From: a virus
Strand: one strand, 5' to 3'
IMG/VR virus record: IMGVR_UViG_3300045970_000065
Span: 1 to 64,000 of that record
Length of the DNA: 64,000 bases
The position numbers and the translations under genes were made by a program. The notes beneath the pieces are model-generated. The model was not told the DNA's origin. It did not search any database and saw only the letters and a program-made list of their open reading frames with translations. Of the stretch, positions 4,444 to 64,000 are shown in pieces. Numbering within the stretch: the stretch's first letter is position 1; each line of letters begins with the position of its first letter.

Positions 4444-4461
4444 AACCCGTTGAATTAACCC
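4444..4461 (+). promoter_or_regulatory. Phage-RNAP promoter candidate (one-mismatch copy of the conserved motif)
   Basis: AACCCGTTGAATTAACCC; intergenic; immediately followed by hairpin CCCTC-TTTC-GAGGG (4459..4472); about 120 nt upstream of gene 4583. Confidence 0.55.
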
Positions 4462-13950: not shown

Positions 13951-13997
13951 AAACCGTTAAATTAACCCTATAATGATGTCCCGTTGAATGAGTATAA
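13951..13997 (+). promoter_or_regulatory. Tandem promoter-like motifs (full motif plus related second site)
   Basis: AAACCGTTAAATTAACCC (13951..13968), then CCCGTTGAATGAGTATAAG (13980..13998) 27 nt downstream. Same two-part arrangement at 56526..56572. Confidence 0.55.
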
Positions 13998-16278: not shown

Positions 16279-16993
16279 TATTTTTGGCTGACGATAAATC
16301 TGGTGAACTCGGGGGACATCCTTATAGGACAATCCCGAACCAAGCCCGTAAGGGAAGGCGTAACGACTATCCGAAAGGAGTACACTGGAAGTCCAGTGGA
16401 AGCGCCAGACAGATCAGGGAAAATCTCACATTCCACTAAATGATCTGAAGATATAGTCTGCTCTATATGGTAACATATAGCAGAGAGGAGTAATTATGAT
16501 AGATCCGTCAAAGTTAATTGTACCTAAATTTACAAGAGGCCAATTGAATTGTGATAATAAACGCAATCACAAACGATGTTATGTATGCCAAGAGTTGAAA
16601 CATGAATCAGAATACAGTGGTAATCGCACTAGATCTGATGGTCTACAAACATACTGTAAAGAATGCGGTAAAGCAAAACAATCACAATGGTATTATCAAA
16701 GAGTGCATAAAATTACCATAGAAGAAAGAGATTCGTATCTCGCTAAACAAGATTTTAAATGTGGTATATGTGGACAAACTATTGCATTTAGATTAAAAAA
16801 TGGTGCGGGAACGAATATTGGGAATGAAGCTGTATTGGATCATTGCCATACTTCTAAAAAGATACGTGGAGTTTTATGTGGTTTTTGTAATACAGGTTTA
16901 GGTGCTTTTAAGGATAATTCTTTCTCTTTAGAAAATGCTATCCAATACTTACTCAACTCGGTTGAGGATTAACGAACCTCAGCGAACACAATG
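16279..16993 (+). mobile_element. Group I intron in terL (715 nt) carrying a homing-endonuclease ORF
   Basis: Exon end CGTCGGT (16272..16278) pairs with intron GCTGACG (16287..16293), giving a U-G wobble at the splice site. Intron ends in G (16993). Core blocks are shared with the RNAP intron. Splicing restores the frame (VCIDFNVG|RMHASSF). Confidence 0.75.
16496..16972 (+). CDS. Intron-encoded HNH / endonuclease VII-family homing endonuclease
   Basis: ATG after GAGGAGTAATT; CGICGQ ... AVLDHCHTSKKIRGVLCGFCNTGLGAF (Endo VII / HNH beta-beta-alpha-metal motif); N-terminal CYVC ... CKEC zinc finger. Confidence 0.85.
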   Translation: MIDPSKLIVPKFTRGQLNCDNKRNHKRCYVCQELKHESEYSGNRTRSDGLQTYCKECGKAKQSQWYYQRVHKITIEERDSYLAKQDFKCGICGQTIAFRLKNGAGTNIGNEAVLDHCHTSKKIRGVLCGFCNTGLGAFKDNSFSLENAIQYLLNSVED

Positions 16994-17497
16994 CGAATGC
17001 ATGCTAGTTCTTTTGCCTTAAGAGGTCATCAAATGCAATTCCAAGATGAATTCTCAGGTCATCCTGATACTGAAATGCTTGGCATAGCACTTAAGACTAA
17101 ATATGAAGGTCATGATATCTATGCTTATCCTGACCCTACAGGGCGTTCTAGGAAGTCATCAGCATCAACAGGTATTACTGACTTTAAAATACTAGAGAAT
17201 ATGGGTATCACTTGTCTAGCACGTTCAGGATCGCCACCTATTATTGACTCAGTAGCAGCCGTCAATAAGAAACTTATGACAGCAGCTGGTGATGTAGCTA
17301 TGTACATACATCCTCGATGTACTAAGCTTATTCAATCAATGGAACGTACTAAGTGGCTCGATAATAACATGGATACAGCAACAATCGACAAAACAGAAAA
17401 TATGGAACATCCCTCTGATGGTGTCCGTTATGCCACAGAATATCTGTACCCAATTCAAAATACATTCAGTAGAGGTAAACGTGGATTCGCCTTCTAA
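16994..17497 (+). CDS. terL: Terminase large subunit, exon 2 (nuclease domain)
   Basis: In frame with track ORF 16991..17497; YAYPDPTGRSR, IHPRCTKLIQS, HPSDGVRYATEY typical of the terminase C-terminal RNase-H-like nuclease. Confidence 0.8.
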   Translation, partial: RMHASSFALRGHQMQFQDEFSGHPDTEMLGIALKTKYEGHDIYAYPDPTGRSRKSSASTGITDFKILENMGITCLARSGSPPIIDSVAAVNKKLMTAAGDVAMYIHPRCTKLIQSMERTKWLDNNMDTATIDKTENMEHPSDGVRYATEYLYPIQNTFSRGKRGFAF

Positions 17498-25899: not shown

Positions 25900-27528
25900 A
25901 TGGCCATCGTTAATGCCGCACAGGCTGTTGTTAAAACAGTAGCTGATCCTAATGCTGCATACGAGACATTAAAGCCTGTATGGAAACGATGCAGAGCAGT
26001 CTGTAGCGGTGAAAAGTATGTAAAAGACTTGGATTCCGTAATCGATGTATTCGAGTTTAAAAATCTACTTATTCCTTTTTCACCTACTATGTCTCAGAAT
26101 CAGTACGAGTTTTACAAGGCCGAAGCTGAATTGCCAGGTATTACTGCGCAATTTTCAAAAATGCTTATCGGTGGTCTGTTGCGAAAACAACCTATTCTCA
26201 AATTTCCAGAAGAGGTTCCTGAAGAAGTAAATAATTGGATAGTTAATGAATTTGGTGCTGATGATTCTTCCTTGTTAGCTTTCCTAGATGAAGCCCTTTG
26301 GGAAGAGATTCAGACTTCACGTGCATGGGTCTTTGTTGACTTTCCAGCTATTAGTGATCCTGATACACTGGACCCTGAAGAAGCTGATAAACTAAAACCT
26401 TATCCTATTTTGTATAAGGCCGAAGAGATTATTAACTGGAGAACAAATACTTCCGATCACGGTAAGAGTCAACTAACACAGGTTATCGTAAAAGGTTTTG
26501 AAGAATCTTATGAACAGAATGAATTCCATCCAACTTTCAAAGAGACCGTATGGGTTCATGAGCTTGACCCAGCAGGCAAGTATCAAATTCGAAAGTTTCA
26601 AGTCTCAGCTCCAGCTACTTCAGTAGGTGTATTAATAGGTACAGTACAACAGACCAATACTAAAGCCAGATTTGAGGAAGTAGAGTTAATTAATAACATT
26701 CATGTTCTTGGGGAACGGCTTACATTCATTCCTGCTTGGCCTCTGAATGGCCGTATCGAACTATGTGAACCATTCATGAGTAATATTGTTGATAAAGAAG
26801 TTGGATTGTATAATAAAATCAGTCGGCGAAATCATTTACTTTATGGCGCTGCAACATATACACCATACATAGCATCGGATATGGGACAGGCTGCATTCGA
26901 ACAGATTGTGGATGGCGGTCTAGGAAGTTGGTTTCATCTAGCTAAAGGTGAAACAGCAGATATTCTTAAGACGCCTACTGAAGCATTGGCAGATTACGCA
27001 GTATCTATTGCCGCTAGCATTGAGGAGATGGCTAAATTAGGTATCAGAATGCTGACACCTGAGACAGCGCAATCTGGTGTAGCTTTGGAAATCAGGAATG
27101 CCTCTCAGACTGCGCAGTTAGGCACTTTGAATACTCGCGTATGTAACACTATGCGCCAAGTAATAGCCTTTATGGTCGGTTGGAAATTCGGTATTGCTGT
27201 AGATCCTTCGACTATAACACTGATTCTCTCTGAAGATTTCAATCCTGCACCTCTTGGTGACACTTGGCTGCGCCTTGCTACTGAATGGTATCAGGCATCA
27301 CTTATTCCACGTTCTGCTTGGCTTCGTTTACTTAAACAGAATGAGATGCTTGCTTCTGATTATGATGATGAAGCAGCTCAGGAAGAGTTGAATAATGATG
27401 AATCTATTATGGCTCAGAAACAGAACGAGCAGTATACGCTTGATATAGAACAACAGAAAGTAGCTTTGCAGCAGCAAAAAGATAATCCTCCGCAGAATAA
27501 TAAACCACCTGCAAAGAAGGAGAAGTAG
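25900..27528 (+). CDS. Portal protein (positional and size-based)
   Basis: 542 aa; immediately upstream of a MuF/gp7-domain gene (canonical portal-MuF order as in SPP1 and Mu); acidic/Gln-rich C-terminus. Confidence 0.65.
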   Translation: MAIVNAAQAVVKTVADPNAAYETLKPVWKRCRAVCSGEKYVKDLDSVIDVFEFKNLLIPFSPTMSQNQYEFYKAEAELPGITAQFSKMLIGGLLRKQPILKFPEEVPEEVNNWIVNEFGADDSSLLAFLDEALWEEIQTSRAWVFVDFPAISDPDTLDPEEADKLKPYPILYKAEEIINWRTNTSDHGKSQLTQVIVKGFEESYEQNEFHPTFKETVWVHELDPAGKYQIRKFQVSAPATSVGVLIGTVQQTNTKARFEEVELINNIHVLGERLTFIPAWPLNGRIELCEPFMSNIVDKEVGLYNKISRRNHLLYGAATYTPYIASDMGQAAFEQIVDGGLGSWFHLAKGETADILKTPTEALADYAVSIAASIEEMAKLGIRMLTPETAQSGVALEIRNASQTAQLGTLNTRVCNTMRQVIAFMVGWKFGIAVDPSTITLILSEDFNPAPLGDTWLRLATEWYQASLIPRSAWLRLLKQNEMLASDYDDEAAQEELNNDESIMAQKQNEQYTLDIEQQKVALQQQKDNPPQNNKPPAKKEK

Positions 27529-27567: not shown

Positions 27568-30500
27568 ATGGATATCAATACCAACACTCAGTTATATGAC
27601 AAAGCGGTCGATAGGACTGCAATGGTGAGATTGTATGAGAGACGTGTAAACGGCAAAATCGAATTGGTTATAGATGATCACGTAGTTAGAGTTGATCAAT
27701 TGATAAGAGAAGCTAAAGCGTCCCCTCAAGGTTTCGAAAGACTGAGAGAGGCTATTGATATTGACTTAAGGAAAACGTTTGGGGAGTCATTTCAGATCTC
27801 CAAACGTTCCTTACTCGATTTAGCAAGTGATCAGTTATCGTATGGTGTTCAAAATATAGAAGCCGCGGCTTCACATGTTTGGAGACCTAAAAGCCCACAA
27901 CGAAAAATTCTTGAGACAATTGTTCTTGAGAAACCATTATATAAAGATGTAGCATTAGAACAGGGTTGGAGTAATATCGCCGTATCTGAGAAAAAGAGAT
28001 TAGAAGGTGTAATGCGAAAAGGGATGGCAGAAGGTAAGACGTTAGAGGATATAGCGTTAGCTGTACGTACGGGTAATGTACATGCTATAACACGATTACA
28101 AGCACGAGGATTAGTAATTACAGCTATTACTAGTGTTACTAATCAAGTTGATCAAGCCACTTATATGGCTAATGAGCAGTTATTGAGTGGTTGGCAATAT
28201 GTTGCAGTATTAGACTCTAGAACCACTGCATTATGTGCACATCGTGATGGTACAATATATCCTGTCAATGATACACTACACTTACCACCTGCTCATTTTC
28301 ATTGTCGTTCAACTACGGTTCCTATTGTAAAATCATGGAACGATCTTTCCAAACTCGAAAGTGTAGCTGAGATTCGTAAACGCAATCTTACTAAACTGAG
28401 TCCGAAGCAAATAGCTGCTTTAGACGGTCAAACACCATTACGAGAGACATACGACACATGGTTACGAAGACAACCTCAAGATGTTCAATTAAAACATATC
28501 GGTGATTATAAGAAATTACAATTGTTTCAAGATAATCAATTGACATTAGACAAGTTTACCAATGATGCTGGTAATTCTGTGGGCATAAAAGAGTTGCGAA
28601 CATTAACAGGATTTACGGCACCAAGTGATACTGCTCGTTTTGCAATGGCACGTGAAAAATTGGATGCCATGAAATTATGGGCTACGACACCTGATGACTT
28701 TATTAATGATATAGCGCTTCGTAATACATTGCAAGAATATTACTATTTACAATCTACTGATTTAAATGGTACGTTGTCTCTAACCAACTATAGAGGTGCA
28801 CTAATAAGCACTAAGAAGATGACTAAGAATCGTGTATTTGCAATGCCACCTCGTGAAGATCAGCTAGTCTTCAATCCAATAACAGGACATTACGACGATG
28901 TGCGTCTTTATCAACCAAACTTTGCTGTTCATTCCAATAATATGCGCTTGGTAGAAGAGAGTAAAATTTTGTTAGATAGAGATAAAGCTTTCATAAAGAG
29001 TATGGATGAAAGTCTTAAAGACCGTATGAGTGTAAATGAACGTGCAGTAATACTCGACAATCTTCGTATAACATTTGGACGAGCACGCGAGAATAATGAT
29101 ATATGGACCAATTTCAAAGCCGTATCACAAGGTCAGATTAAGTTTGATGTAATGAACGTATCTGACTCAATCGAGACACAACTTCGAAAGGATAAAGATC
29201 TATTAAAAAGATTACAGAATAATAATTATCTAGATCCTGTTCTTGGTCCAGTCCAACTAGATGAAATGCATGACCAATTCTTGGATAATATTCGAGAGAA
29301 GAATCTTTGGGAAGATAGAACTGCCCCTCAGATAGCTAAAGAACTTCATGGGATTTTTAATGGTTATTTTAATACTGATGCACCATTAATAATTCGAAAG
29401 AGGATAACTAATAGTGATCTTCAACAATTTTATCTTCGTTTTGCACAACGTTTAAGTCTTGCTGATATGCCTGATAGAGATCAGTTTGCTGTAGCACTAG
29501 GACGTGATTTGTATAATGCTGCAAATATTAACGGCGATAGAAAGTCTTGGTTTAAACTTGGAACAGAATTGTTAGAGAATCCAAAATCTAAAAAGTTCTT
29601 TGAGATTGAGACTTATGGTGTACAAAAACGTAGAATGAAGAGTAGATTGAGTAATAATTACTTTGGTCCTTATTATGATACGCTCTCATATAATATCAGA
29701 GTAACAGATCCACGCATTGTTAAATATGCCCAACTAACGCGTAAGGTAGAACTAGGACTACGTGTAGCTGTTGTTGATGATGCCAATCGTTTAGTGATCA
29801 GAGAGGGTTATAAAACGTATTGGATAAAGAATAAATTAACATACACAGATACTCGAATACCAATTACATCTACAAGCTCATTCTCTGATTTTCCAGAGGA
29901 ACTTATTGATGCTAATATGGTCAAAGCATTGAATTGGGCAGCAAATACCAAGTATCGCGTTGATGATGATTTCTATAACTTTACTAAAAAGCTCTTATAC
30001 TTTACTGATGATAAAGGTAAGGCAGATTACTATAACGGTTTAAATACTTATCGTAAATACATTGTATCGCGTGGTGATGCTTATGAACGTTTTAAAGCTA
30101 TGGAGTGGTTACAGAAAGATGGTAAATCTTTTAGCAATCATCCTTTTGTGGATCATCGTGCACGAATTTATGATAGAGGATTAATCAGTCCACAATCAGG
30201 AGAAACCTTCAGACCTTTTCTGAATACAGAAGCAGAGAAAAATCTCGGTGTAAATGGATATCACAATCTGCAAGATCAAATAGGAGCATTCCTAGGAGGC
30301 TTAAGTGATACTTTCGAATCGCGGTATAATGGGTTATCAGTTACTGGAAGGCAGAAGATCGCTGAGAAATGGCGTCCAGAGCTGGTTAAAATCGGTAATC
30401 AAATGTTGCGAGCGAAACCTGCTGATATTCGAAATATACTGGAAAACGAAATTGTGGCCCAAGTGGACGGGGAGGATTTGGGGAAGTTCTTAAGGTTTGC

Positions 30501-32271
30501 TATAGAGCAAGCTAAGATAGACAACTATTTAGTTGGTGATTATAAAAATCTAAAAGCCCTAAATAACTATAAAACAGCCCTTGCAATGGAACAAGATGCG
30601 TCCTCTTCTGGTGCACAGATAATTGCTCTTACTACAAAGAATAAGCAACTTGCTGAAATGAGTAACGTATTACAAACCACTCAAAAACGAAGACTATATG
30701 ATGAGATAGCTGCAGCTACCTTCAATGATCCTCGTTTTAAGATATTGAACGAGAAATTAGGTTTGAATGAAAAAGATCTACGGAAGGCAGCTAAGGCTCA
30801 GAATATGGTTACATTCTATGGTGCAGGTGAAAGGACAGGTACTCTCAATGTTGAAGGAAAATTGGCAAAAGTTCTTAACAAAGATACGAACACTTTGGTC
30901 GTCACTGCGTCTGAGCGTGAAACTGTACTTAATGAGATAAGTGCTAGAATTGCACGTTATGAAAAGTTCGACACTGAGACAGCAGACGAGCTTAGAGTGT
31001 TACGTAATAACGTTAAAGATATATTCAATAAAGGTCTTGATCCTGGTGATGATATAATGGATCAGCTTTATTTTCTAGATCCTAAGACACGTGATCTGGT
31101 TAATAAGATGACGATGTCTTATGATAAGATTGTTACACCTCAAGACTTCAAGGATATAGCTAGTATAATGAGTGAACACTTGGCTGAGGAAGTACCTATC
31201 CTAAAAGATTTTACAAAATTCTTTGGAAGACTAGCTGAGGACTTTCTAAAGAACGCGAAGCCTTCTACTGCTGCTTTTGATTGGAAAGCTGTCGCGAAGA
31301 CAGCTGTGTTAGGTACTAAGCGAACTAAAGATACCAAGAAAATGGCGAGTGTACGGGATAAGCGTTATACATTGCCTGATTGGGCCAGTAGAATACTCGG
31401 TTTGAAAGCTAAAGAGCCTGTCAGAGAAAAGATACTTAAAAGTTTTGGTTTCTGGAACCCTAAAGGTACACTTGCTTCATTGATTAATGGTGTCGAAGCT
31501 CCAGAAGCAAGGCGAATGGGTGCTAAGTACCTAAAGGCTGGTTATTTAAAACCTACATTCGAAATGAAGGACGGCAAGATAACGCTTATCAAGGAAGTCA
31601 AACCTGCTCAAATACAGTTACTTTATGCTAATAAATTGCCTAAGAGTTGGACAAATGTGCCATGGGTTAATTTTGACGGCAAGATACTAGAGCAAAATTT
31701 TACTCAAGTCTTTGAAGAACGCTTAGCGTATAAAGATGCTAATGGTAATTGGATCAATAACATTCTACAAGTGCCTCAGAAGACAGAAGCTTCTTGGTGG
31801 GAACAGGTGATCAATGACGATGGTAAGATTAATGACATAGCTGATTCTGGAAAAGCAAGAACAGCTTTTGCCGTTAATGGTAATCATTCGAATGATGCCG
31901 TAATTGTAAAGAGATTTCATATGTGGGGTGCCGATAACAATATTCCCACTTCAACAATTCATGATGCTTTCTTCACAAATATTGCAGATATGTTGCAAGG
32001 CAGAGAAGCTCTTAGAGACATCTATGCCGAGACGCTTAAACAGAATGTGGTATTAAATGTACTTAATGAAATGAAAGCCAGAGGATTACCAGAAGAACTA
32101 TATCAGAAATATCTTGAAGAAGCAATTGATAAGGGTCTTATGCCCATTGCAGGTAAATCAAAGATAGGTGGCAAGATAGTTACCGAAGATGATATCTTAA
32201 AACCGAAAGACCTGCTGAAAGCAATTCCTCAAGACTTCAAACAAGATCTTTACTGGTATGGTGTTGGCTAG
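27568..32271 (+). CDS. MuF / SPP1 gp7-like head-morphogenesis domain fused to a T7-like single-subunit RNA polymerase domain (virion RNAP candidate)
   Basis: MuF signature WQYVAVLDSRTTALCAHRDGTIYPVNDTLHLPPAHFHCRSTTVPIV (28192..28329). RNAP motifs in order: FVDHRARIYDRGLISPQSGE (30145..), motif A EQDASSSGAQ (Asp 30595..30597), motif B RKAAKAQNMVTFYG (30781..), NGNHSNDA (His 31885..), motif C TIHDAFF (31960..31965). Confidence 0.8.
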   Translation: MDINTNTQLYDKAVDRTAMVRLYERRVNGKIELVIDDHVVRVDQLIREAKASPQGFERLREAIDIDLRKTFGESFQISKRSLLDLASDQLSYGVQNIEAAASHVWRPKSPQRKILETIVLEKPLYKDVALEQGWSNIAVSEKKRLEGVMRKGMAEGKTLEDIALAVRTGNVHAITRLQARGLVITAITSVTNQVDQATYMANEQLLSGWQYVAVLDSRTTALCAHRDGTIYPVNDTLHLPPAHFHCRSTTVPIVKSWNDLSKLESVAEIRKRNLTKLSPKQIAALDGQTPLRETYDTWLRRQPQDVQLKHIGDYKKLQLFQDNQLTLDKFTNDAGNSVGIKELRTLTGFTAPSDTARFAMAREKLDAMKLWATTPDDFINDIALRNTLQEYYYLQSTDLNGTLSLTNYRGALISTKKMTKNRVFAMPPREDQLVFNPITGHYDDVRLYQPNFAVHSNNMRLVEESKILLDRDKAFIKSMDESLKDRMSVNERAVILDNLRITFGRARENNDIWTNFKAVSQGQIKFDVMNVSDSIETQLRKDKDLLKRLQNNNYLDPVLGPVQLDEMHDQFLDNIREKNLWEDRTAPQIAKELHGIFNGYFNTDAPLIIRKRITNSDLQQFYLRFAQRLSLADMPDRDQFAVALGRDLYNAANINGDRKSWFKLGTELLENPKSKKFFEIETYGVQKRRMKSRLSNNYFGPYYDTLSYNIRVTDPRIVKYAQLTRKVELGLRVAVVDDANRLVIREGYKTYWIKNKLTYTDTRIPITSTSSFSDFPEELIDANMVKALNWAANTKYRVDDDFYNFTKKLLYFTDDKGKADYYNGLNTYRKYIVSRGDAYERFKAMEWLQKDGKSFSNHPFVDHRARIYDRGLISPQSGETFRPFLNTEAEKNLGVNGYHNLQDQIGAFLGGLSDTFESRYNGLSVTGRQKIAEKWRPELVKIGNQMLRAKPADIRNILENEIVAQVDGEDLGKFLRFAIEQAKIDNYLVGDYKNLKALNNYKTALAMEQDASSSGAQIIALTTKNKQLAEMSNVLQTTQKRRLYDEIAAATFNDPRFKILNEKLGLNEKDLRKAAKAQNMVTFYGAGERTGTLNVEGKLAKVLNKDTNTLVVTASERETVLNEISARIARYEKFDTETADELRVLRNNVKDIFNKGLDPGDDIMDQLYFLDPKTRDLVNKMTMSYDKIVTPQDFKDIASIMSEHLAEEVPILKDFTKFFGRLAEDFLKNAKPSTAAFDWKAVAKTAVLGTKRTKDTKKMASVRDKRYTLPDWASRILGLKAKEPVREKILKSFGFWNPKGTLASLINGVEAPEARRMGAKYLKAGYLKPTFEMKDGKITLIKEVKPAQIQLLYANKLPKSWTNVPWVNFDGKILEQNFTQVFEERLAYKDANGNWINNILQVPQKTEASWWEQVINDDGKINDIADSGKARTAFAVNGNHSNDAVIVKRFHMWGADNNIPTSTIHDAFFTNIADMLQGREALRDIYAETLKQNVVLNVLNEMKARGLPEELYQKYLEEAIDKGLMPIAGKSKIGGKIVTEDDILKPKDLLKAIPQDFKQDLYWYGVG

Positions 32272-32276
32272 GACTG

Positions 32277-32294
32277 AAACCGTTAAATTAACCC
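32277..32294 (+). promoter_or_regulatory. Phage-RNAP promoter candidate upstream of scaffold and capsid genes
   Basis: AAACCGTTAAATTAACCC, 6 nt after the upstream stop; followed at once by hairpin CCACGG-TATAAACG-CCGTGG (32293..32312). Confidence 0.6.
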
Positions 32295-32373: not shown

Positions 32374-33093
32374 ATGGCATTAACTGCAGAAGAAATTGCG
32401 GCGAAAGAGTTGGAGATTACGCAGAAGGAACAGGAACTTCTTGAAAAAGAGAAGGCATTCTTAGAGCGCACTGCGGGCACTGAGGATGAGAAAGTAAAGA
32501 AGGCAGCGCAAGCTCTTGTTGACGAGCAATTGAAGGATGTCAAAACGAAGCTTGATGAAGCCTATGCCAAACGTGATGCTGCTCAGAAGGCTCTTGCTGA
32601 GAAAGAGGAGAAAGATCGTGAGGCGGCCATTCAGCGAATGAAGGATGAGGGCAAGCATAAGGAAGCCCATGAAGCTGAACTTGCTGATGAAAAGGCCAAG
32701 AGAGTGGCATTAGAGCGACGCAATGTTGAACTCACGAGAGACATTGAGGTCCGTAGTGCTTTGAGCAATCCTACAGGTGATTCTACACCTAAAGTCTTCA
32801 GAAGTGAAAATGCACTCGAGATGGCGTTTAAGGAAATTGTAGGTGATCTTGTAAAAGATGAGACAGGCATATGGCGACATAAGTCTGGTGTGTCAATTAG
32901 GGATTATGTTAAAGTTTTCAGTGAAAACGAGGCGAATTCCTTCTTGTTTAAAAGTAACACATCGTCTGGAGCTGGTAATACAGGTGGTAAAAGTACTGGT
33001 GGTACTAGCAGTGGTGCAGTTAAATCCCTGTTCGATCTACCACAATCTGAAGTGTTGAAAATGGCAGCTGCAGGTAAATTTAATAGAAAATAA
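32374..33093 (+). CDS. Scaffolding protein
   Basis: 239 aa, Glu/Lys/Ala-rich coiled coil; directly upstream of the capsid gene; G+C-rich codon usage. Confidence 0.7.
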   Translation: MALTAEEIAAKELEITQKEQELLEKEKAFLERTAGTEDEKVKKAAQALVDEQLKDVKTKLDEAYAKRDAAQKALAEKEEKDREAAIQRMKDEGKHKEAHEAELADEKAKRVALERRNVELTRDIEVRSALSNPTGDSTPKVFRSENALEMAFKEIVGDLVKDETGIWRHKSGVSIRDYVKVFSENEANSFLFKSNTSSGAGNTGGKSTGGTSSGAVKSLFDLPQSEVLKMAAAGKFNRK

Positions 33094-33105
33094 GGATAAT
33101 ATACA

Positions 33106-34338
33106 ATGGGAATGACATCCGCAAACAATCTCTCTACATGGACCGGAACTCAAGACGCTCCTCCTAATGTCGATGTTCTCCAGAATGCCATCACCGGTTA
33201 CTCTGATGAGGCATATACGACTGCGAAGAAACTCTCGAGCACTGCAATCGTCGGTGGAAATCCGAATATCGATACCAATACCGAAACCTTCATTGGTCAG
33301 GTTCGTTGGTATAAACCTCTTAATCCTTACGTCAATGTGGCTTCACTCACAGACAAAACTCCTGGAACGAAAACCAACTACTCCAGCGATTTTCTGAATT
33401 ACATCAAAACCGTTCGTACGCATGGCGCCGAGAAAGTCAATATGACCGAGGTTGTAACTCGGGTTGATGGTCTTGCTAAGGTTGGTCGTGACTTTGGTCA
33501 GACTCGTGCAATGGATGAGCACAATGCTATCCTTTCCGTTCTCAAAGGTGTTGCAATCTCTGAAGCAATCGTTGGTGCGGTAACTGGCGGAGCTGGTGGA
33601 CAGACCTGGAGCAATCTCCCGGAAAGTACCACGAATGGTTTCTATGTTGATCTTGGATCCAGCAAGATTATCTCTGGTCCTGGTCTGAATCCTGCAGGCG
33701 CAGCCAATCTTGCGTATCTTGGTGCAGCTCGTGCTGAAGGTTTTCTGGAAGCCTTTGGAAAAGCATACAAGGATTATGAGCCTGAGTATGCGTACCTGAT
33801 TACCTCTCCGTCTACCCTGATGTCTCTTCGTTCGGCAAATCTTGTTGACGAACAGGGTGTTGTCGATGGTAATATCAATTTCAGTACTATCTTTGGCGGA
33901 AAATTCCGTCTGCTTCAGACGCGTGAATCCATGGGTCTTTCTTCTGCTCAGTTCACTGCAATCAATGCAGCCGGAACTGGAACAGATATCGCCACCACTC
34001 AGAACACCACGTTCATTGTTCTTCCGGGCGCCCTTGCTCTTGAACAACTCGCTGTTCCTGATCAGACTGAAATTACCCGCGATGGTAATGCTTTCAAAGG
34101 CGGCGGGATTACGTCCATCTGGTATCGTTGGGGTTACGTTCTTGCTCCTGCAGGATACAACTGGGCCGGTTCTCAGACCGACTTCCCTGATAACGCAGGT
34201 TATATGGCTGTTTGGGATACTACTGCAACGGCTGGTTGGGAAGCTCTCACGGCGGCTACTACTCCGAGCAAAGGTGTATGGGAACGTAAGGCTTCCTCTG
34301 TTCTCAGTCTTGGCATCCTTCCGGTGTTTCACGCCTAA
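33106..34338 (+). CDS. Major capsid protein
   Basis: 410 aa; follows scaffold; strongest codon bias in the window (also creates a spurious 329-aa antisense ORF). Confidence 0.75.
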   Translation: MGMTSANNLSTWTGTQDAPPNVDVLQNAITGYSDEAYTTAKKLSSTAIVGGNPNIDTNTETFIGQVRWYKPLNPYVNVASLTDKTPGTKTNYSSDFLNYIKTVRTHGAEKVNMTEVVTRVDGLAKVGRDFGQTRAMDEHNAILSVLKGVAISEAIVGAVTGGAGGQTWSNLPESTTNGFYVDLGSSKIISGPGLNPAGAANLAYLGAARAEGFLEAFGKAYKDYEPEYAYLITSPSTLMSLRSANLVDEQGVVDGNINFSTIFGGKFRLLQTRESMGLSSAQFTAINAAGTGTDIATTQNTTFIVLPGALALEQLAVPDQTEITRDGNAFKGGGITSIWYRWGYVLAPAGYNWAGSQTDFPDNAGYMAVWDTTATAGWEALTAATTPSKGVWERKASSVLSLGILPVFHA

Positions 34339-37509: not shown

Positions 37510-40500
37510 ATGTCGATCGGAATAGAGTTTGAAACCAGATCAGACAAGGCCCAAAAAGACCTAAATGCTATTAATAATTCTTTGAAAAATATAGAGAATA
37601 CGACAGGAAAAGCTTCTGCAGCATTAGGGAACGCCTTTAGAGCCTTAGGAGCGATGGCTACAATAGGCGGTACGGCCTTGTATCTGAAGAATGTGTCGAC
37701 GCAATTTTCAGAACTATCGAATAAGATAGCCGTGGTAACAGGTAGAACAAATGCGCTTGTAAAGACGCAAAAAGAGTTGTACGCAATAGCTACAAAGACA
37801 GGTTCTTCATTAAGTAGTGTAGCTGAGACATTTGGCTCCTTTGGGCGATCTACAAAGAATATGGATATACCTTTACGGAAGTTGTTAACCGTAACTGAAA
37901 CTATCCAAAAGGCTTTGACACTTACAGGTTCTAATAATGAATCTGGAGCGCAAGCACTATTTCAGCTAGGTCAGGGTTTAGCTTCAGGTACATTGAGAGG
38001 ACAAGAATTAAACTCTGTCCTCGAACAAGCACCTCGTATTGCACAAGCTATATCTGATGAACTTGGTGTAACATTAGGTCAATTGCGTTCAATGGGCGAG
38101 GCTGGTAAGATAACATCTAAAGTTGTCTTTAGTGCAATGCTCAATCAGACTAAGAAAATTAATGAAGAGTTTAAAGATATCAACTTCACTATATCTCAAA
38201 CGATGGGAAGCTTAAGTGATGCTGTTAAAATCTTTGTAAGTGAACTTGACAAGGGTTTGGGAATATCTTCCGGTCTAGGTAATACTTTCTTTAAAATGGC
38301 AAATCACATTAGGCTTGCAAGTGATGGTGCAGCTGAGATGGGATATAATTTCAAAGAAAGTTTTAAGACAATGAAAGCTAATGTTGCGCTTATAGCTGGT
38401 CCTATGTTGAGTATTATTCGAAAATTAGGCTCTCAATTACTTACTGCAATGCCTACACATATATTTCATAGAACATTGATAAAGGACTGGAATGCAGGAT
38501 TAGCGGCACTTGATCGTTCTACAGGCGGTTGGCTTCAAAAGTGGAAACTGTTTAAGTTCTCAGATATCATTCGAATAGAATCCCCGATTGAAGTTGCTTT
38601 AAGAAAATTAAGGAGGCTAAGCAATCCTAACAAGCAAGTCGGCGGTTTCTTGAATGTGAAATTTGATTCGAAGAGACTACATGATTATAGCAGATTGTTA
38701 GGTGATTTAGCAGATGCTACTGGTAAGAACTCAAGCACTCTTGGTGTAACATTAACTACAATGATGTTAAAAGTAGACCATGCGTTTAGAAATGTATTCC
38801 ATTATTTCTCTCGTAATAAATTTACTTTTACATTTAATAAGGGTAATATTGAAGGTTTCTTGATGTCTCTTTCTGAGATGACAAGAGGTATTACTGGCGT
38901 TCATAGAGGCTGGTTAGACTTTAAAACGCACATTGTTACTATATTCGCACCTGCGATATATTCATTAGGTATTGCCTTCAAAGATGTCTCTAAAGCCATT
39001 CCTACGTACCTCGATTATCTAAAGAAAAGTGCTATTGAGTTTTATGATATCTTTATCAGAAACTTCAAAGGTATTGCAGCTGAGTTGATTCGAGTATCAA
39101 CTGTCTGGCGTTCAGCGTTTGTATCAATGCTGATGGCATTCTATGAGTTTGAAAAATCTATCTGGGATAAAACAGGGCTTTCAGATTATCTTAAATGGGA
39201 ATTGAAACTTACCAAAGAACTACTCTCTAAAATTACAAATGCTTTTGTAACTTCTGATTTTGGTTCAGCAGCTATACGCGTCTTTAAAAATACTGTAAAG
39301 GCTATTGAGAAACTTTACACTGATCTGCATAAAGTTTTTGATAAGAAAATGCACAGAGTCAACTTTTCTAGTGTGGCCGATTCATTTGATGACTTCTTTA
39401 ATAATTTAAAACATGTTAATGATAAGACCAAAGGTATCTCTAAAATATTCAGAGTACTAGAAGAACGTTTAGTACTTGCGAGACACAGAATCGTAGATGC
39501 TTTCAGTTCGCTATATAGTGATCTTCAAAAGGCTTTGAATAAACCATTTCGTGCAATCGATTTTGGAGATGTATTGGCAAGTCTTACGATGTTTCTGAAT
39601 AGGATTTATCATGCATTCGATAAGAATAAACCTTTCACCGATAGTTTAAGCAGTATTAAGAAATTTGCAAAAGGTGTTATAAATGAATTCTATACAATAT
39701 GGGATAAAGTAATAGGACACTCATATTGGACGGATACCATTGAATCAATAAAGAAAACATCACGCGATTTGGCTTCGAGTGTCGGCCCCGTTCTTGCAAG
39801 TTTCGGTGACAAGGTAATAGGTGTCTTTCGAAAGGTACATGCACAGGTTGATAGTATTCTAACGCGAGTTAAGAATAAACTAGCTGATGTGTTTGATAAG
39901 AATAATATCGTTCTGCCAACTTTCAAGATAGATAAGAAACTTGACTTTAAAACCAATTTTAATAATATCATAAAAGACTTCAAGAACAGTTTTGTTATTA
40001 TATCGCATGAATTACCTGAGATCTTTAAAGTAGCTTTGGCAAGTATGGCGGCCATGGTTGTAATGATGCTCGTACCGCCTGGTAAATTAAAAATAGCGTT
40101 ACTTTCTGAGTTTCTTAGTACTGTGGCCGTTAGTGGGACTATAGTTGCTGAAGCTTTTGGTAAGGCTTTAACTGGTGGAAGTCTTGTTTATACAGTAGGA
40201 CGAGCCTTCGGTAGATTAGTAGGTATTATTGTTGGATCAGTTATTTACGATATACCTTTCATCTTAAATTCAGTATTGGGACTTATTGCCGGTTTCGGAC
40301 GAGGTCTAGCTGAAGAGCTTACAATGCAATGGGGTTCCTTTGGTAAGATGATTCAGAAAGTTATTAAAGCTGCTTTTAGTGTAAGCGATGTTGTTGGCGG
40401 TATGGCAACTGGTACACTAGGTCTTTTAGGTGCTTATCTATTCGGGACATCCGTACTAAAAGTATTATCAGCGCTTGGTATCTACAAGAAAGAGATCAAA

Positions 40501-43500
40501 GGTATTGGTGGAATATTTACTAGTCTTGCTAGTGTTATTATGGGTACTAGTAAGAATCCTGGTTTTGTTGAACGTATGCTGTTTGGCAGAATGGGTGTAA
40601 TGAAATCACTATCTTTGATAGGTCTTGTAGCGCAATATGCAGGTGTCTTTGATTCTGTCGTTGGTGAAGCAACTACTATGAACGGTGCGGCGCTAACTAC
40701 AGCATTATTTGCTGGTCTATGGAAAGGCGATAAGATAGTAGAAGGCTTTAAGACTAAGATAATTAATCCTATTATTCTTGCAGTAAAGGGATTACTTAGC
40801 AAGATGAATGCACTACTTGGTGGCCAGAGTCTTCCTGTAGCTTTGTTCAGTCCAACTGGACCTAATATGAGTACGTTTGCTGCTTTAAGTGCGATATACA
40901 ATACAGGTCTTACGTTAGTAGCGGATAAAATACGACCGTATGCCGCTAAAGTTTCAGCATCTATTATGGGTGCATTATTTGGTAGCAATGCGCAATTAAA
41001 TCGGCAAATGATGTGGTGGGAGATTAAAGACGCTTTCACAGAAGTGTGGGCATCTATAAAAGGAATGTTCGCAGGTAGTGGTGGAGGAGGTTTATTTAGT
41101 AGTGTACGAACACAATTGACAACCTTTTTCACTTGGGCAGGTGGATTGTTTACAAAATTTACATCGTTTATAGGTAACCTCTTTGGCACTCAAGGATTAC
41201 TTCCTAGAATCTTTATGGGGATAGGTGGTAAGACTGCTGTTAAAGCTGCTATTTATGCAGGTATTGCAGCAGCGGTATTAGCAGTAGGTAGTGTTGCTTT
41301 CGGTGCTGAAGATAAGCCTGTTAAGACACATGCAGATACAGTCAACGAACGTCTAGATAAAGCAAAAGAGAAGAAGAACTATTGGAGACCTTATCCTATA
41401 AATCAGGATGTAGAAACATGGGTTAGTAACAATCCTATTAAGACTGCACTTGCATTTGCAACAGCTGCTCTTGGTGCGTTCGTTGCATTATCTTCAAAGG
41501 CCAGAGCTGCTATTACTAACGCTTTTGCCAATGGCTTACCTTCCGCTAATATGCAAAATTTTGCTAAAGGTTTCGCTGTCGTTGGATCAATGGCTGCCGC
41601 TTTCTTCTTAGGAAATTTCCTTGCCAAATTTACAGGTAATGAAGATATGGCAATGGAATTTGGTCTGATGGCTACAATGCTTGTTGGTTCCATGGCTAGC
41701 TCAATATCGAAAGCCGTTCCAGGTCTTCTCAAAAGTGTTGGAGGATTTCTTGCGACTGAACTTCTAATCGGAACTCTCAGTATTCCTGTATGGATCGCTG
41801 GTACATTAGCCGCGATAGCTGCAGCAGGTGTCGGTGCTCTTGGAATATTCTTGTTCGGGAAAGAAGGTGACTTTGGTAAGGATTTCAAGAATTTAACTAA
41901 GCGTGTAAAGAACTGGGTTACACAAACAAATGAAAAGGATATTAAGTCTAGTATTACTGGACTCACACAAGGTCAGAATAAATCTGCTAGAGAGTTAGGG
42001 ATTGATTTAGAGTTCGATGTGAGTACCATAGATACTAAAAAATTGTCTAAAGTTGAAAAAGAAAAACTTACGACTCTTGAGACCGAATTCGGAAAAGTGA
42101 TTGACTCGGCTAAATTTGAGAAGATAATTAAAGGGCGATTAGAAGGTGCAACACTTATCGCTATTGAATCAAAATATGATGAACTTAAGAAGTATGTTGA
42201 TTTCTTAGGTAAGTCTGATTTCAATTTTATAGATAGTCTTAAATCTACTGATACTATGAATCCTACTTCTAAAGCGGATAGATTCAGTTATTGGCTTAAA
42301 GAAATACGTCTTAAACGATCTTATAATCTTCAAATGGATGAGTTGGAATTACAACGGTCAGGTATCGAGCGTTATCATCAGCTGAACAGTCTTGAGAGTT
42401 CAGAGAAGTATGCTGAAAAGATGGCTAGAATAAACATGAAGATTTCCGATCTAATGAAACAAAAAGACACCGACTATAGCGCATACAAGAGAGGTACTAC
42501 TCCGCAAGAACAACGTGTAGCATATAAAGCTTTTAGCTTAAAAGATGCTACTATGCCTTCGAGTATGGCTGATAATTATGATAAACAGTCAAGACGTGTA
42601 GCTACTCTTCGTTATGAACGTAATCAATCTGAGCAATTAGGCAACAACTTCGCCGAACTTCCTCAACGTAATCTTAAAGAAATAGATAAAGATCTTACTG
42701 AAGCAATGGATAGCTGGGAACGTCTAGCAGATCGTGTAAATACATATCAACTACATCTAAATGACGTAGATATATTTACAAAGAGTGTTGCTAATATGGC
42801 TTCTACTTTCAAAGAAGCTGGTGTAGCGTTTGAAGAAAACGCTGTATTTGCCAAAGATGGTGCAGCATATGAGCGTATTAAAATGCTACAAGGTGAAGCC
42901 ACAGTTCTTGCTAGTGATCTTAAAAATGCTAAATCTATAGCTGATAAACAAACCATTTTCTGGAGACAGGAAGTAATAACAAATGAAATTGTGAGAATTA
43001 AATTAGAAGCGGATACAACTAGTCCGTTTAGAAAACAATTTTTACTTGCAGATATTACTGGTGCAGCAGATATGCTTGAAGGTATTTCAAAGAAGACTTT
43101 TGAGACTCTTTCAGATGATGCATCCAAGGCACTCTTTGATCAGGTAACAAAAATCAGAGTTGCTCAGAAAGCGTTAGAAATTCTTCCTGAGCAAGATCCT
43201 AATAAGATTCTTACAGCGCAAGCGGATATTCTTGAAAAGGTTGTTAAACTTGAGAAAGAATTAACGGGGCTTCGTAAGAAACGTTTGGAATCTGCAGCAG
43301 GAAGTGGTTATTTTGATTCTAGACAAGCAACTCCTGAAGATGTTTATAATGGACGTTTAGGGAGTCTCTTTGGTAGTCAACCTGAAGCTACGGATAAACA
43401 ACGTGCTGATGCTATTGCCCAAAAAGAAATCGAAAGAAAAATATGGGTGGAAGCTGGTAGAAAACAATTTGTTTATAATGAAGGCAAACCTGAGACGATT

Positions 43501-56397: not shown

Positions 56398-56423
56398 GGG
56401 CCAACTGCGGCCACCCCATGACT

Positions 56424-56461: not shown

Positions 56462-56525
56462 GCCTGGAGTTGCGTTCTCGTTACTCTTTTTGATTAGCCT
56501 AAAGTACACAATTTGGCATCGTGAC

Positions 56526-61129: not shown

Positions 61130-62705
61130 ATGATCAACCGCTTGAAGAGAAATGTAATTCGGAGATTAAGTGATGAAGTCTCAGCACATAATCCCATAAA
61201 ATTTCTTAACAAGCTGAATATCGACGAGTACTTTCCCGTAGTAATCGCAACTCTCTACTTATACACACGTATGAAAAGAGGGACTAATAAAAGTGTTTAT
61301 CTAACCGAGGTAGCTTCAGCAATCGGTCATAGTATCCGTAATAAATATAAACTCAAAAGAGATTCAGCTTTAGCTATTAAAGCGGGTGCTTTCTTATTGT
61401 ACACTTTTGAACAGGCAGGTATGGTTCAGATAGTGCTAGGAAAAGGATCCAATGGACACGGTTCGTATATCCTTAAGATTAATGATGATCCTGCAATATG
61501 CCTATTATGGAATTCACTACCAGTACGATTAATTGAAAAGTTGCCTTCCGAGAAACCGTATGCTCCATGGGTATCGACACGTCATAAGGAAACAGGATTA
61601 TCGCTTGTAAAGACAGGTAATAAGGATGTGTTAGATAAAATAACACCTGCTACACATCCTATCTTGTTTAATGTAATTAATCGAAAGCTCGAGGTTGGTT
61701 GGACGGTTAATGCAGAGTTATATCATGTACATGTATGGGCACTTAAAGAAAAGACTGAAGCATTCGCTGAAATCTGGGAACAACAGAACCCAGAAGCGAA
61801 AGTGACTAAACTCAGGGAGGCTAAAGCAATTGGAGACATTGCTAAAAGATTTATTGACAAAACGTTCTTCCACCTTTATTATTTCGACTTTAGGGGACGA
61901 ATCTATCCTGCCACGGCCTACCTTCATGAGCAAGGAAGTGATCTTGCAAGGGGACTCTTGCTACGTAGTGACAGTAAAGCCATTGGTAGAGAAGGTTTCT
62001 TTTGGCTTTGTGTGTCAATCGCGTCAAACTGGGGAGGTTCTTGTGGAAGGCGAGATGGAGCTAAAACTGACAAAATACCGCTCAAAGACAGATTCCAATG
62101 GGTCCTAGACAATGAAGATATATTCTTGGACTATGCATCAAACCCAAAAGAGTATCAAAACTGGATGCAAGCTGACAAGCCTTGGCAATTCTTAGCTGCA
62201 TGTATTGAGCTAAGAAAGCTAAGGGAATGGCAAACAAATTTTACATTTGATGGTAGTGGTCCAGATTATAGTAACTATAATTATGAGTCGCATCTAGAAG
62301 TCTACATTGACGGTAGTAATAATGGCTCACAACACTTATCAGCATTGACTCGTGATGAAGTAACAGCCCCGCATGTAAATCTAGTACCATCAGATTTACC
62401 AGGTGATCTGTATAAGTATATTGCAGATCACGTTTGGGCGCGACTTGAAAAAGCCTATAATGACATGGCACCATTCGAAAGAGAACTTTGTGAGACATTC
62501 ATCGATAATATAATTGACCTTAAACGGCAGATATATGAAGCTGAGCCGCAGAGTGAAGAACGCAAATGTCTGATTGATAAAATCCAAAAGGAAAAGAATT
62601 TAAATATCTTCCTTCAAGACAAGGCTTGTGTTGTTTACTGGCTACGTGTAACTGATCCAAAAGAAAGAAGAAAGATTTGCAAGAGAAATGTTATGACACT
62701 TCCGT
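61130..62705 (+). CDS. T7-like single-subunit RNA polymerase, exon 1
   Basis: YYFDFRGRIYPATAYLHEQGSDLARGLL (cf T7 MDWRGRVYAVSMFNPQGNDMTKGLL); motif A VYIDGSNNGSQHLSALTRDE (Asp 62309..62311); start of motif B RRKICKRNVMTLP. The ORF then reads into the intron and stops at 62722. Confidence 0.9.
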
Positions 62706-63425
62706 TAACTAGGCGGAAGTAAAATCGGGTGAATTCAGGGAACATCCATTCACCGTGGACAATCCTGAGCCAAGCTTACGCGGAAATGCGTCTGAAGGTG
62801 CAACGACTATTATGTAGGGAGGTAGTCCTCTCGAAGCGCCCGACACCGTTAGGTGATGATATAGTCTGGTCTGCATAGTGATATGCAGCTGTCAATAATT
62901 CAAATGAGGAGTTAACATTGAATTGGTTTGAATATTTCGAATATGAAGATGGTGAATTGATTAGGTTACACAGTAATAATCAACACAAACATGTAGGTTC
63001 TGAGAATAGTTGTGGTTATGTTCAATTTGAACATCAAGGCAGAACATATATGTTGCACAGGATTATTTGGGAGATGCATTATGGTGCAATATCGAAAGAT
63101 ACTCAAATAGATCATATTGATAGAAATCCGTATAATAATCGAATAGAGAATTTGAGAATATGTACTCAAAATCAGAATCAAATAAATGCCAGAATACCTA
63201 AGAATAATACAAGCGGTTTTAAAGGTGTTCTGAAAACACCTAATGGTAAATTTCAAGCAAGACTGGGCTATAATGGCGTTAAGTTATATTTAGGGTTATT
63301 TGATACAGCTGAAGCAGCTAATGAAAAAGTCATCGCGAAAACGAGAGAATTGTACGGTGAATTTGCAATTCTCTAATTTGAATTATCGACAGAGTACACA
63401 GTAACGAAGTGTGCTGAACAACACG
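62706..63425 (+). mobile_element. Group I intron in the RNAP gene (720 nt) carrying an HNH-AP2 ORF
   Basis: Exon end CTTCCGT (62699..62705) pairs with intron GCGGAAG (62713..62719), with a U-G at the splice site. Intron ends in G (63425). Splicing gives ...VMTLP-Y-GGTAYGLGQQQ, restoring motif B. Core blocks shared with the terL intron. Confidence 0.8.
62918..63376 (+). CDS. Intron-encoded HNH homing endonuclease with AP2 DNA-binding domain
   Basis: TTG start after GAGGAGTTAACA; HNH IDHIDRNPYNNRIENLRICTQNQN; AP2-like SGFKGVLKTPNGKFQARLGYNGVKLYLGLFDTAEAA. Confidence 0.85.
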   Translation: MNWFEYFEYEDGELIRLHSNNQHKHVGSENSCGYVQFEHQGRTYMLHRIIWEMHYGAISKDTQIDHIDRNPYNNRIENLRICTQNQNQINARIPKNNTSGFKGVLKTPNGKFQARLGYNGVKLYLGLFDTAEAANEKVIAKTRELYGEFAIL

Positions 63426-64000
63426 ATGGAGGTACAGCTTATGGATTGGGGCAACAACAGATAGATGATGCTCGTAAGCACGGAATTACACTATTACTCT
63501 ACCTTGAGCACAAATGGGGTGCCTTTCTTGGTAGAGAAATCTATGAAGATTGCAGAACGTCTCTCGAACGACCTATGCGTCTGCTCAAGATTTTTGAAGA
63601 CGCCGGTAAGAAGGCCGAGGCAGAAGGTAGATTCTTATCGTGGACAGTCCCCCTCACGCATTTCCCGGTCGTTCAAAATTATACTGAAGGCACCGTCAAA
63701 AAGATTTGGGTACAATATGGACCGCCGGAAGGTTGTAGACTTCCAAATCACTATTACACCAATACACTGCAACTAGCTGTATGTTTCATTGAGGATGTAG
63801 TGCCTTCTAAGAGAAAACAATCTCAAGGAGCCAGTCCTAATGCAATACATAGTTTGGATGCCGCTCATCTCACAATAACGTGCGATCAGGCACCATTCGA
63901 TGTGACAACGATTCACGATTCATTCGGATGCCTACTGGCAGATATGCCGGTACTCTACAAACTCGTCAGAGAGACTTTTGTTCAACTGTATTCTACTGAT
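63426..64000 (+). CDS. T7-like RNA polymerase, exon 2 (3' partial, runs off the window)
   Basis: Frame 2 open from 63426 to the window end: YGGTAYGLGQQQ ... SPNAIHSLDAAHL (cf PNFVHSQDGSHL) ... TTIHDSFGC (motif C). Track ORF 63465..63776 is in the wrong frame. Confidence 0.9.

Follow-up and report, generated by a model that had tools for sequence, protein, structure and literature searches.

A MuF minor head protein fused to a T7-like RNA polymerase: a candidate virion-carried polymerase of long-tailed phages

The 64,000-nucleotide stretch of viral DNA analyzed here (positions 1 to 64,000 of IMG/VR record IMGVR_UViG_3300045970_000065; hereafter, the window) carries on its plus strand a single gene (27568..32271, ATG start) whose 1567-amino-acid (aa) product (179 kDa, pI 9.1) was confirmed to join a full MuF minor head protein to a complete, highly divergent T7-like RNA polymerase (RNAP). 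We regard it as probable that the fused protein is targeted to the portal, carried in the virion and used to start early transcription; such a function would be like that of the virion RNAP (vRNAP) that phage N4 brings into the cell, reached through a different architecture. An earlier note on this DNA had proposed such an enzyme; here its claims are set against domain, profile and structure searches, the conservation of the fusion in relatives and the gene neighborhood.

Two modules in one polypeptide

The gene is one unbroken reading frame of 1567 codons (open reading frame [ORF] listing and translation), and its product, entry P0001 of the homologue search set, is encoded on a JGI metagenome contig of 80,085 bp. 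The N-terminal module, similar to the minor head protein SPP1 gp7, spans 27568..28620 (aa 1-351). Its Pfam core (nt 28003-28317, aa 146-250) matched Phage_Mu_F (PF04233; E = 7.8e-12; 46.4 bits against a curated cut-off of 29.6), and the PHROGs family phrog_241 ("head morphogenesis") covered aa 1-351 in full (E = 3.3e-59). Residues D216, T219, C223, H243, C246, R247 and S248 were invariant, and the MuF signature that the earlier note had placed at aa 209-254 is present there. An acidic hinge or linker (28621..28809, aa 352-414, pI 4.7) leads into the single-subunit RNAP module (28810..32268, aa ∼415-1567, 132 kDa), which matched RNA_pol (PF00940; E = 1.7e-10; 40.7 bits against a curated cut-off of 22) and, over aa 860-1094, phrog_414 ("RNA polymerase"; E = 1.8e-20). 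Both Pfam matches are far above chance, and these are the only Pfam domains in the protein, with no peptidase domain found. The joining of a MuF domain to a T7-family RNAP, as originally proposed, is thus borne out by Pfam, which placed Phage_Mu_F in the N-terminal and RNA_pol in the C-terminal part, as well as by PHROGs and a family profile (below).

The motifs of T7-family polymerases occur in order along the RNAP module, each where the earlier note had quoted it. The first, FVDHRARIYDRG (aa 860-871), includes DxRxRxY (30151..30171; D862, R864, R866, Y868) and aligns to T7 "MDWRGRVY". Motif A, AMEQDASSSGAQ (30583..30618, aa 1006-1017), places its DASSSG on T7 "FDGSCSG", with D1010 (codon 30595) at D537. 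Motif B, RKAAKAQNMVTFYGAG (30781..30828, aa 1072-1087), contains R1072, K1073, K1076, Y1084 and G1085. It is followed by VNGNHSNDAV (31873..31902, aa 1436-1445; N1437, H1440, D1443), which aligns to T7 "PNFVHSQDGS" (H784), and by motif C, TSTIHDAFFT (31948..31977, aa 1461-1470), in which D1466 (codon 31963) corresponds to D812 of T7 "LIHDSFG". Across 32 sequences from both clades of the family (see below), D862, R864, R866, Y868, D1010, K1073, K1076, Y1084, G1085, H1440, D1443, H1465 and D1466 were invariant; among full-length homologues the motif patterns were found in 229/229 (motif A), 229/229 (DxRxRxY), 223/229 (motif B) and 215/229 (motif C). The proposed match of motif B to R627, K631 and Y639 of T7 stood in part: K1076, Y1084 and G1085 are invariant, but the arginine (R1072) is kept in the window's clade only, whereas members of the Naomviridae clade have A, S or Q at this position. 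Invariance of the catalytic residues, and of those that contact template or NTP, between clades only ∼31% identical argues for selection for catalysis, and by this conservation the active site is shown to be intact and the polymerase predicted to be catalytically competent.

A single-sequence search of PDB sequences with the whole protein gave no match. A family profile built from an alignment (A1) of 32 members, drawn from both clades, matched T7 RNAP (E = 1.9e-7) in four colinear segments that set D862/R864/R866 on T7 DWRGR (this region aligning to T7 residues 398-464), D1010 on D537, H1440 on H784 and D1466 on D812. An AlphaFold2 model of aa 400-1567 reached a mean predicted local distance difference test (pLDDT) score of 75.5 and a predicted template modeling (pTM) score of 0.73, with low pLDDT in its first ∼60 residues. 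In Foldseek searches against the PDB, the top 50 matches to this model were all T7 or yeast/human mitochondrial RNAPs (E = 3e-17 to 6e-14; 1000-1300 alignment columns; probability 1.00; target TM-scores 0.43-0.57), with N4 structures absent from these 50. Against BFVD, a set of predicted viral structures, the best match was A0A7S5FRK7 (1463 aa; E = 5e-59), whose length and accession series suggest that it is the homologue of a DSS3 phage, followed by T7-like phage RNAPs (E = 1e-19 to 1e-12) and then by pieces of N4-like vRNAPs (E = 1e-11 to 1e-8). The modeled structure therefore confirms, at the level of prediction, the palm/fingers RNAP fold for which the earlier note had proposed AlphaFold and Foldseek checks of the C-terminal half, and the fold extends to a thumb and an N-terminal domain. 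A model of aa 1-500 (pLDDT 81) showed low-confidence breaks at aa 352-354 and 401-413; its MuF module (pLDDT ∼85-90) consisted mainly of long helices with a small beta core, and Foldseek retrieved nothing meaningful for it from the PDB (best E = 0.25), a set that apparently holds no MuF structure.

The mitochondrial enzymes among the best structural matches bear on one rival explanation, namely that the protein is an injected primase-like enzyme that chiefly makes RNA primers or opens an origin rather than producing mRNA. T7-type RNAPs do prime replication, in mitochondria as well as in T7 itself. Primases are also often found in polyvalent injected proteins (PMC5512222). However, no origin-like feature is tied to the fused enzyme, and the precedent set by N4 for an injected T7-fold enzyme is transcription; a mainly priming role is very unlikely in our estimate, and would in any case be compatible with a virion-carried transcribing polymerase rather than exclusive of it.

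Searches with aa 400-1567 as query returned 407 clusters, and almost all of the best 120 were proteins of 1520-1580 aa with both PF00940 and PF04233 (62-70% identical; from JGI, ENA, NCBI and Logan, on contigs as long as 90 kb). The C-terminal part of the homologue in roseophage DSS3_VP1 gave a second set of 194 clusters, again with both domains. A HMMER scan of 1.84 billion cluster representatives recovered 164 relatives of the RNAP module; full-length matches measured 1264-2073 aa with the RNAP part beginning at aa ∼370-920, hence fused, and the most distant and the longest of those tested also contained PF04233, while conventional RNAPs appeared as weak matches (E = 1e-8 to 1e-5). In total, the fusion is kept in >200 full-length homologues that fall into two clades ∼31% identical, colinear along the entire protein apart from one ∼125-aa insertion. 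Nearly all full-length occurrences of the RNAP module therefore come with MuF, and by this distribution the fusion is obligate rather than accidental. It also bears on the concern that a misassembly or a frameshift error ran two adjacent genes together, or that the RNAP part is a decayed pseudodomain, for which the unusual length of the gene would be the sole argument. Because the fused ORF recurs in two cultured phage genomes and in >200 independent cluster representatives of full length, and because the catalytic motifs are invariant, such an artefact is refuted and retains practically no probability.

Among annotated phage genomes, full-length homologues were found only in EBPR siphovirus 1 (56% identity; here an HNH gene divides the gene into gp47 and gp49) and in the Naomviridae roseophages DSS3_VP1 (YP_010105321.1) and DSS3_PM1 (31% identity to the window protein). 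The annotated homologues are labeled "head morphogenesis," "minor head protein-like" or "head protein"; the database name is "SPP1 gp7 family putative phage head morphogenesis protein," and "DNA-directed RNA polymerase" appears on fragments only. No MuF-RNAP fusion was described in the literature searched, whose coverage leaves out most subscription journals, and the words "RNA polymerase" are not mentioned in the founding paper of the Naomviridae, a 2025 single-particle genomics paper or a 2025 paper on deoxyuridine (dU) biosynthesis. This accords with the earlier note, which knew of no described fusion of this kind.

Members of the family differ by several insertions. The one that separates the two clades lies in the fingers region (31270..31647, aa ∼1235-1360); it is missing in the Naomviridae clade, with a gap fraction of 1.0 across aa 1251-1350, and was modeled with low confidence, partly as a beta-hairpin (model residues 834-959). 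A further site lies ∼16 residues before motif A (after window aa 988-994), where 11 relatives (P0021, P0024, P0055, P0059, P0078, P0087, P0090, P0093, P0110, P0111 and P0119) carry inserts of 61-194 aa that are unrelated to each other; P0108 has a 211-aa insert after aa 1104, past motif B. Inteins were considered for these ∼1600-1800-aa relatives and rejected, as Pfam found none and the insert boundaries lack intein residues; the inserts match no Pfam family, and those near motif A mark a surface site where insertions are hypervariable. The fused gene of EBPR siphovirus 1 has an insert with an HNH gene (L001 9190-10130) inside its motif B (between …AKAQNMV and TFYGAGE…). No group I intron was found in it at the Rfam gathering threshold, leaving either a degenerate intron or a split gene.

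Head genes, a second polymerase and promoter-like elements

As the earlier note had stated and the ORF listing agrees, the fused gene has the portal gene on one side and those of scaffold and capsid on the other. The portal gene (25900..27528; phrog_145, E = 4.9e-57; PF13264 [DUF4055]) ends 40 nt before it, and the scaffold gene (32374-33093; phrog_206) begins 103 nt past it, followed by the major capsid protein gene (33106-34338; phrog_247). These genes, like all large genes of the window without exception, are on the plus strand. The order portal, MuF-RNAP, scaffold, capsid and on to the tape measure gene is kept in clade-1 relatives (L004 and L005) as well as in Naomviridae-like contigs and DSS3_VP1 (L006, L007 and L002); by tblastx, the window is colinear with DSS3_VP1 from terminase through to the second RNAP gene. 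In the Staphylococcus phage 80alpha, gp44 (PF04233) fills the equivalent slot between portal and scaffold. By analogy, the portal would be the expected docking partner of the MuF module.

The tape measure protein gene (37510-49029) encodes 3839 aa with PF20155 at the N-terminus and contains three diverged ∼98-nt internal repeats at 45187, 47389 and 48679. The window therefore belongs to a long-tailed phage; tape measure proteins of relatives range from 1655 to >2999 aa, and the length of this one would imply an exceptionally long tail. A second, conventional T7-like RNAP gene (RNAP2; 61130..64000) extends from exon 1 (61130 to ∼62701) to an exon 2 that starts at ∼63506 and runs past the window end. 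RNAP2 matched PF00940 (E = 1.7e-36) and phrog_414 (E = 6.8e-67), and its exon 2 contains AYG, HS.D and IHDSFG. A long-tailed phage with an additional conventional RNAP was what the earlier note had described, and both parts of that description hold; its designation of the second enzyme as "early" is unproven. RNAP2 is only 24% identical to the fused RNAP module (across 208 aa) and is therefore not a recent paralogue. DSS3_VP1 contains a counterpart (32% identity), so that the two-polymerase arrangement is ancestral to both clades.

RNAP2 and the large terminase gene are each interrupted by a group I intron (Rfam RF00028, Intron_gpI). The intron in RNAP2 (62625-62888, 80.3 bits; insert ∼62702-63505) is associated with an HNH ORF (62918-63376), and that in the terminase gene (16203-16480, 74.9 bits; insert ∼16210-17100) with an endonuclease VII/HNH ORF (16496-16972). 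Both share a 36-nt element just 5′ of the endonuclease ORFs (16446-16481 and 62854-62889), and DSS3_VP1 likewise has a terminase, endonuclease VII, terminase arrangement. The RNAP2 intron interrupts motif B (between …KRNVMTL, 62690-62701, and AYGLG…, 63506 onwards); since the insert in EBPR siphovirus 1 also lies in motif B, at the equivalent spot of its fused polymerase, one catalytic motif has been targeted in two polymerase lineages of related phages.

Related proteins of both kinds, a MuF protein (29% identity) and a second RNAP, occur in the Pelagibacter siphophage Kolga. The MuF protein of Kolga (gp59, L003 5001-6902) is 633 aa long, with no polymerase in the cargo place; at its C-terminus, matches to Peptidase_Mx1 (E = 9e-5) and to an anthrax lethal factor-like domain (E = 2e-3) fell below the cut-off. 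A MuF slot with a weak zincin-peptidase match fits a view of MuF as a cargo carrier. Zincin-type domains are those that Iyer et al. find always linked to N4 vRNAPs.

Seven nt past the stop codon of the fused gene, 5′ of scaffold and capsid, stands a promoter-like 17-mer, AACCGTTAAATTAACCC (32278..32294). The family has four members in the window (4445-4461, 13952-13968, 32278-32294 and 56527-56543; plus strand), all intergenic, three of them exact and one with a single mismatch. The element past the fused gene is kept in relatives whose proteins are only 56-67% identical, as CCCCGTTGAATTAACCCA in L004 (position 14668) and GACCGTTATTTTAACCCA in EBPR siphovirus 1 (L001, ∼11500), and as an exact AACCGTTAAATTAACCC at the corresponding place in L011 and L013. 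Elements of this type were also found after the tail genes in L010 and directly past the second RNAP gene in L012. Two of the AACCGTTAAATTAACCC copies are accompanied, 26 nt to their 3′ side, by a second variant, CCCGTTGAATG with TATAA after it (13980 and 56554).

The position of the element directly after the fused gene bears on a further rival explanation, in which the enzyme works inside the producing cell as a late polymerase, for example on late genes or at sites of assembly, the MuF module serving head assembly or regulation only and any packaged copies being irrelevant. The gene does lie in the late structural operon, with this conserved promoter-like motif between it and the scaffold and capsid genes, and a cargo domain can be more active when free than within the full-length MuF fusion (PMC10083569). 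Nevertheless, a separate conventional RNAP is already present in both clades, and the explanation accounts neither for the near-absence of an unfused module among 1.84 billion representatives nor for a coupling to a portal-binding domain kept across deep divergence. We consider it unlikely.

In DSS3_VP1 (L008 2237-46577), at least 10 copies of ATAGGKTRCGTTAAAGARGGGG, which has a CGTTAAA core in common with the window motif, lie on the coding strand, three of them in tandem before the portal gene. No copy occurs at 29.4-45.9 kb, a block with the genes of the tape measure protein and the second RNAP and, upstream of the RNAP gene, small ORFs (∼36-44.6 kb); copies resume directly past the second RNAP gene. 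This pattern resembles that of T7, in which promoters for the phage RNAP begin downstream of its own gene, and suggests that ATAGGKTRCGTTAAAGARGGGG- and AACCGTTAAATTAACCC-type motifs belong to the conventional RNAP, while the promoter-free block may be read by something else. A paired element was noted at the start of the small-ORF block between the tail genes and the second RNAP gene, GGTATCTTATATGA in the window (56682 and 58524) and GGCATCTATAATGA in DSS3_VP1 (L008 35808 and 36255); with two copies per genome, it could be a second promoter class or chance. Sigma-70-type promoters were not enriched in the small-ORF block (15 against 12.7 ± 3.6 expected), an uninformative result. An unusually G+C-rich stretch of ∼85 nt (56397-56480), in a genome of ∼40% G+C, separates the last ORF of the tail region from the tandem promoter-like motifs; it ends in a terminator-like hairpin (56457-56478) with a T-run and may represent a terminator, a site for packaging or an end of the genome.

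Elsewhere in the window, 10024-11082 encodes a 352-aa adenylosuccinate synthetase that matches the PurZ-type family phrog_1211 (E = 4e-60). A 2-aminoadenine genome was considered and is not supported: the best PDB matches of the synthetase are cellular PurA, its best phage matches are mycobacteriophage "PurA-like" proteins, and no DatZ- or MazZ-like partner was found among its neighboring ORFs, none of which matched Pfam. In the 64-kb window, beyond which the contig continues for ∼16 kb, tblastx revealed no counterpart to the dCTP deaminase of DSS3_VP1. The ribonucleotide reductase ORF at 1-1430 opens with a match to an intein C-terminal splicing region (aa 4-32, E = 7e-5, below cut-off), which suggests an intein cut by the window edge. 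A 116-aa SET-domain protein is encoded at 1803-2153 (PF00856; 30.2 bits against a cut-off of 22.4).

Proposed role of a virion-carried polymerase

If the fused protein is a virion-carried polymerase, it would be made late, off the structural operon. Its MuF module would bind the portal during procapsid assembly and so bring a few copies of the whole polypeptide into the head, where the acidic, flexible hinge joins that module to the complete T7-like RNAP. We infer packaging through the MuF module by analogy with SPP1 gp7, for which portal-mediated targeting into the procapsid is established and which aids the initiation of infection (PMC6316719). Carried in the capsid beside the portal, the protein would exit via the tail, either together with the DNA or slightly before it, and in the new cell the fused RNAP would transcribe the first genes, probably the small-ORF block leading into the second RNAP gene, without host RNA polymerase or new protein synthesis. 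Its transcription may also help draw the genome in. The conventional RNAP would take over afterwards, from conserved CCGTTRAATTAACCC-type promoters. As a separate conventional RNAP is present in both clades, transcription inside the cell would have no need of the fused enzyme, and the possession of two RNAPs fits a division of labor like that between the vRNAP and RNAPII of N4. For 80alpha gp44, which belongs to PF04233 and fills the equivalent gene slot, work by Manning and colleagues from 2018 is reported to describe an ejection protein that acts after injection.

Several points weigh against this course of events. The fused enzyme could not be matched to any promoter class from the motifs of the window and its relatives, and the one clear promoter-like motif stands before late as well as early genes. 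The 179-kDa protein would also have to pass unfolded down a very long tail (tape measure protein of 3839 aa); for scale, N4 ejects a vRNAP of 380 kDa. In work by Vinga and colleagues from 2006, SPP1 gp7 reportedly did not leave the particle detectably in vitro and instead tethered the released DNA to it. The behavior ascribed to gp7 raises the alternative that the fused protein is packaged but retained at the portal, its polymerase serving as a clamp on the DNA end or a brake on DNA exit, and both the MuF module and the gene position do equal those of gp7. However, a clamp needs no catalytic Asp, Lys, Tyr and His or positions that discriminate ribonucleoside triphosphates (rNTPs) kept invariant across clades ∼31% identical, and the capsid interior is without NTPs; retention of this kind appears quite unlikely. 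As regards carriage and ejection of the fused polymerase, both Jamet et al. 2017 (PMC5576092) and a 2023 PNAS paper (PMC10083569) explicitly treat the delivery of MuF-fused cargo as hypothetical, and the earlier note went too far in listing the exit of MuF proteins together with the DNA as established. Rihtman et al. 2021 is silent on virion proteins and RNA polymerase.

Several major groups of phages owe their independence of the host to virion-packaged RNAPs. Were the fused enzyme such an RNAP, it would be the first injected one known in long-tailed phages and the first clear functional demonstration of MuF as a general device for delivering protein cargo. The carriage and injection of MuF cargo have been explicitly open since 2017 (PMC5576092; PMC10083569), and here the activity of the cargo is easily assayed. 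The question is testable, since DSS3_VP1 and DSS3_PM1 are in culture on Ruegeria pomeroyi DSS-3. For the uracil-DNA roseophages, on which the literature searched does not mention RNA polymerase, the fusion offers a lead on how transcription starts: the uracil-for-thymine genome of the Naomviridae might be expressed without host RNA polymerase, by an enzyme perhaps adapted to uracil-containing promoters. The family is common in metagenomes, with hundreds of 90%-identity clusters and contigs of 60-90 kb, and as a branch of the single-subunit RNAPs that has diverged deeply and would bring new promoter specificities it could serve as a source of orthogonal transcription tools.

Comparison with known systems

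Stand-alone MuF proteins such as SPP1 gp7, Mu gpF and 80alpha gp44 share with the fused protein the Pfam family and the position between portal and scaffold, and are few-copy, portal-bound proteins that support the start of infection (PMC6316719). They differ in being 300-330 aa long, with a single module and no enzymatic domain. MuF polymorphic toxins and polyvalent proteins (PMC5576092; PMC5512222) are closer in layout, having an N-terminal MuF domain with a variable enzymatic cargo, proposed to be delivered with the DNA (PMC5576092), and a gene that adjoins that of the portal. Their cargos are ADP-ribosyltransferases, nucleases and RelA-like enzymes, whereas here the cargo is a 1150-aa polymerase, and no RNA polymerase is among the MuF cargos listed by Jamet et al. 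2017 (PMC5576092) or Iyer et al. 2017 (PMC5512222). Moreover, MuF toxins are usually followed by an immunity gene, in contrast to the scaffold gene found here, and occur almost only in temperate phages of Firmicutes, whereas the fusion occurs in the cultured lytic phages DSS3_VP1 and DSS3_PM1 (PMC8323127). In toxin domain, immunity gene and temperate lifestyle alike, the fused protein thus departs from the MuF polymorphic toxins.

With T7 and mitochondrial RNAPs the fused module shares the fold and all catalytic motifs, their order kept. The T7-like enzymes stand alone, are synthesized once infection has begun and form no part of the virion; single-sequence searches link them to the fused module weakly or not at all, and the latter carries the ∼125-aa clade insertion.

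To our knowledge, known virion RNAPs all belong to short-tailed N4-like or crAss-like phages or to jumbo myophages. The enzymes of PBS2/AR9 (uracil-DNA jumbo phages), the phiKZ-like phiR1-37 and the crAss-like phages (gp66) are located in the virion and, as injected RNAPs, free early transcription from the host, as we propose here. In contrast to the fused protein, they have polymerase folds of the unrelated double-psi beta-barrel type, are multi-subunit or giant, and lack MuF. PBS1/PBS2 and PhiR1-37 share a dU genome with DSS3_VP1 (PMC12697855), and if the fused enzyme is indeed injected, all three known dU-DNA phage lineages would bring their own polymerase. That MuF-tethered T7-like RNAPs form a fourth, independently evolved class of injected virion RNAP, besides the N4-like, phiKZ/AR9-like and crAss-like classes, is a tentative suggestion that we would not yet expect to hold.

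The nearest functional parallel is N4 gp50, the vRNAP of the Schitoviridae. It is likewise a single-subunit RNAP of the T7 fold that travels in the capsid and is responsible for the first transcription, a role that we infer for the fused enzyme; N4-like vRNAPs transcribe early genes from hairpin promoters, and N4 also has a second T7-like RNAP (RNAPII) for the next stage, as two RNAPs are present here. However, gp50 is ∼3500 aa long, with a central mini-vRNAP and its own N-terminal injection and C-terminal encapsidation regions, against 1567 aa with a MuF carrier; N4 vRNAP is always linked to a zincin-like peptidase (PMC5512222); and N4 is short-tailed, whereas the gene context here is that of a long-tailed siphophage. 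The fused protein therefore falls outside the N4-like vRNAPs in size, metallopeptidase and gene neighborhood. It is also structurally nearer to T7-like RNAPs than to the pieces of N4 vRNAP, and the view of the earlier note that the domain solution differs from that of N4 is upheld by its length, its lack of a metallopeptidase and this structural affinity. If the proposed role is correct, the fusion would represent a new and much simpler architecture for a virion RNAP in siphophages.

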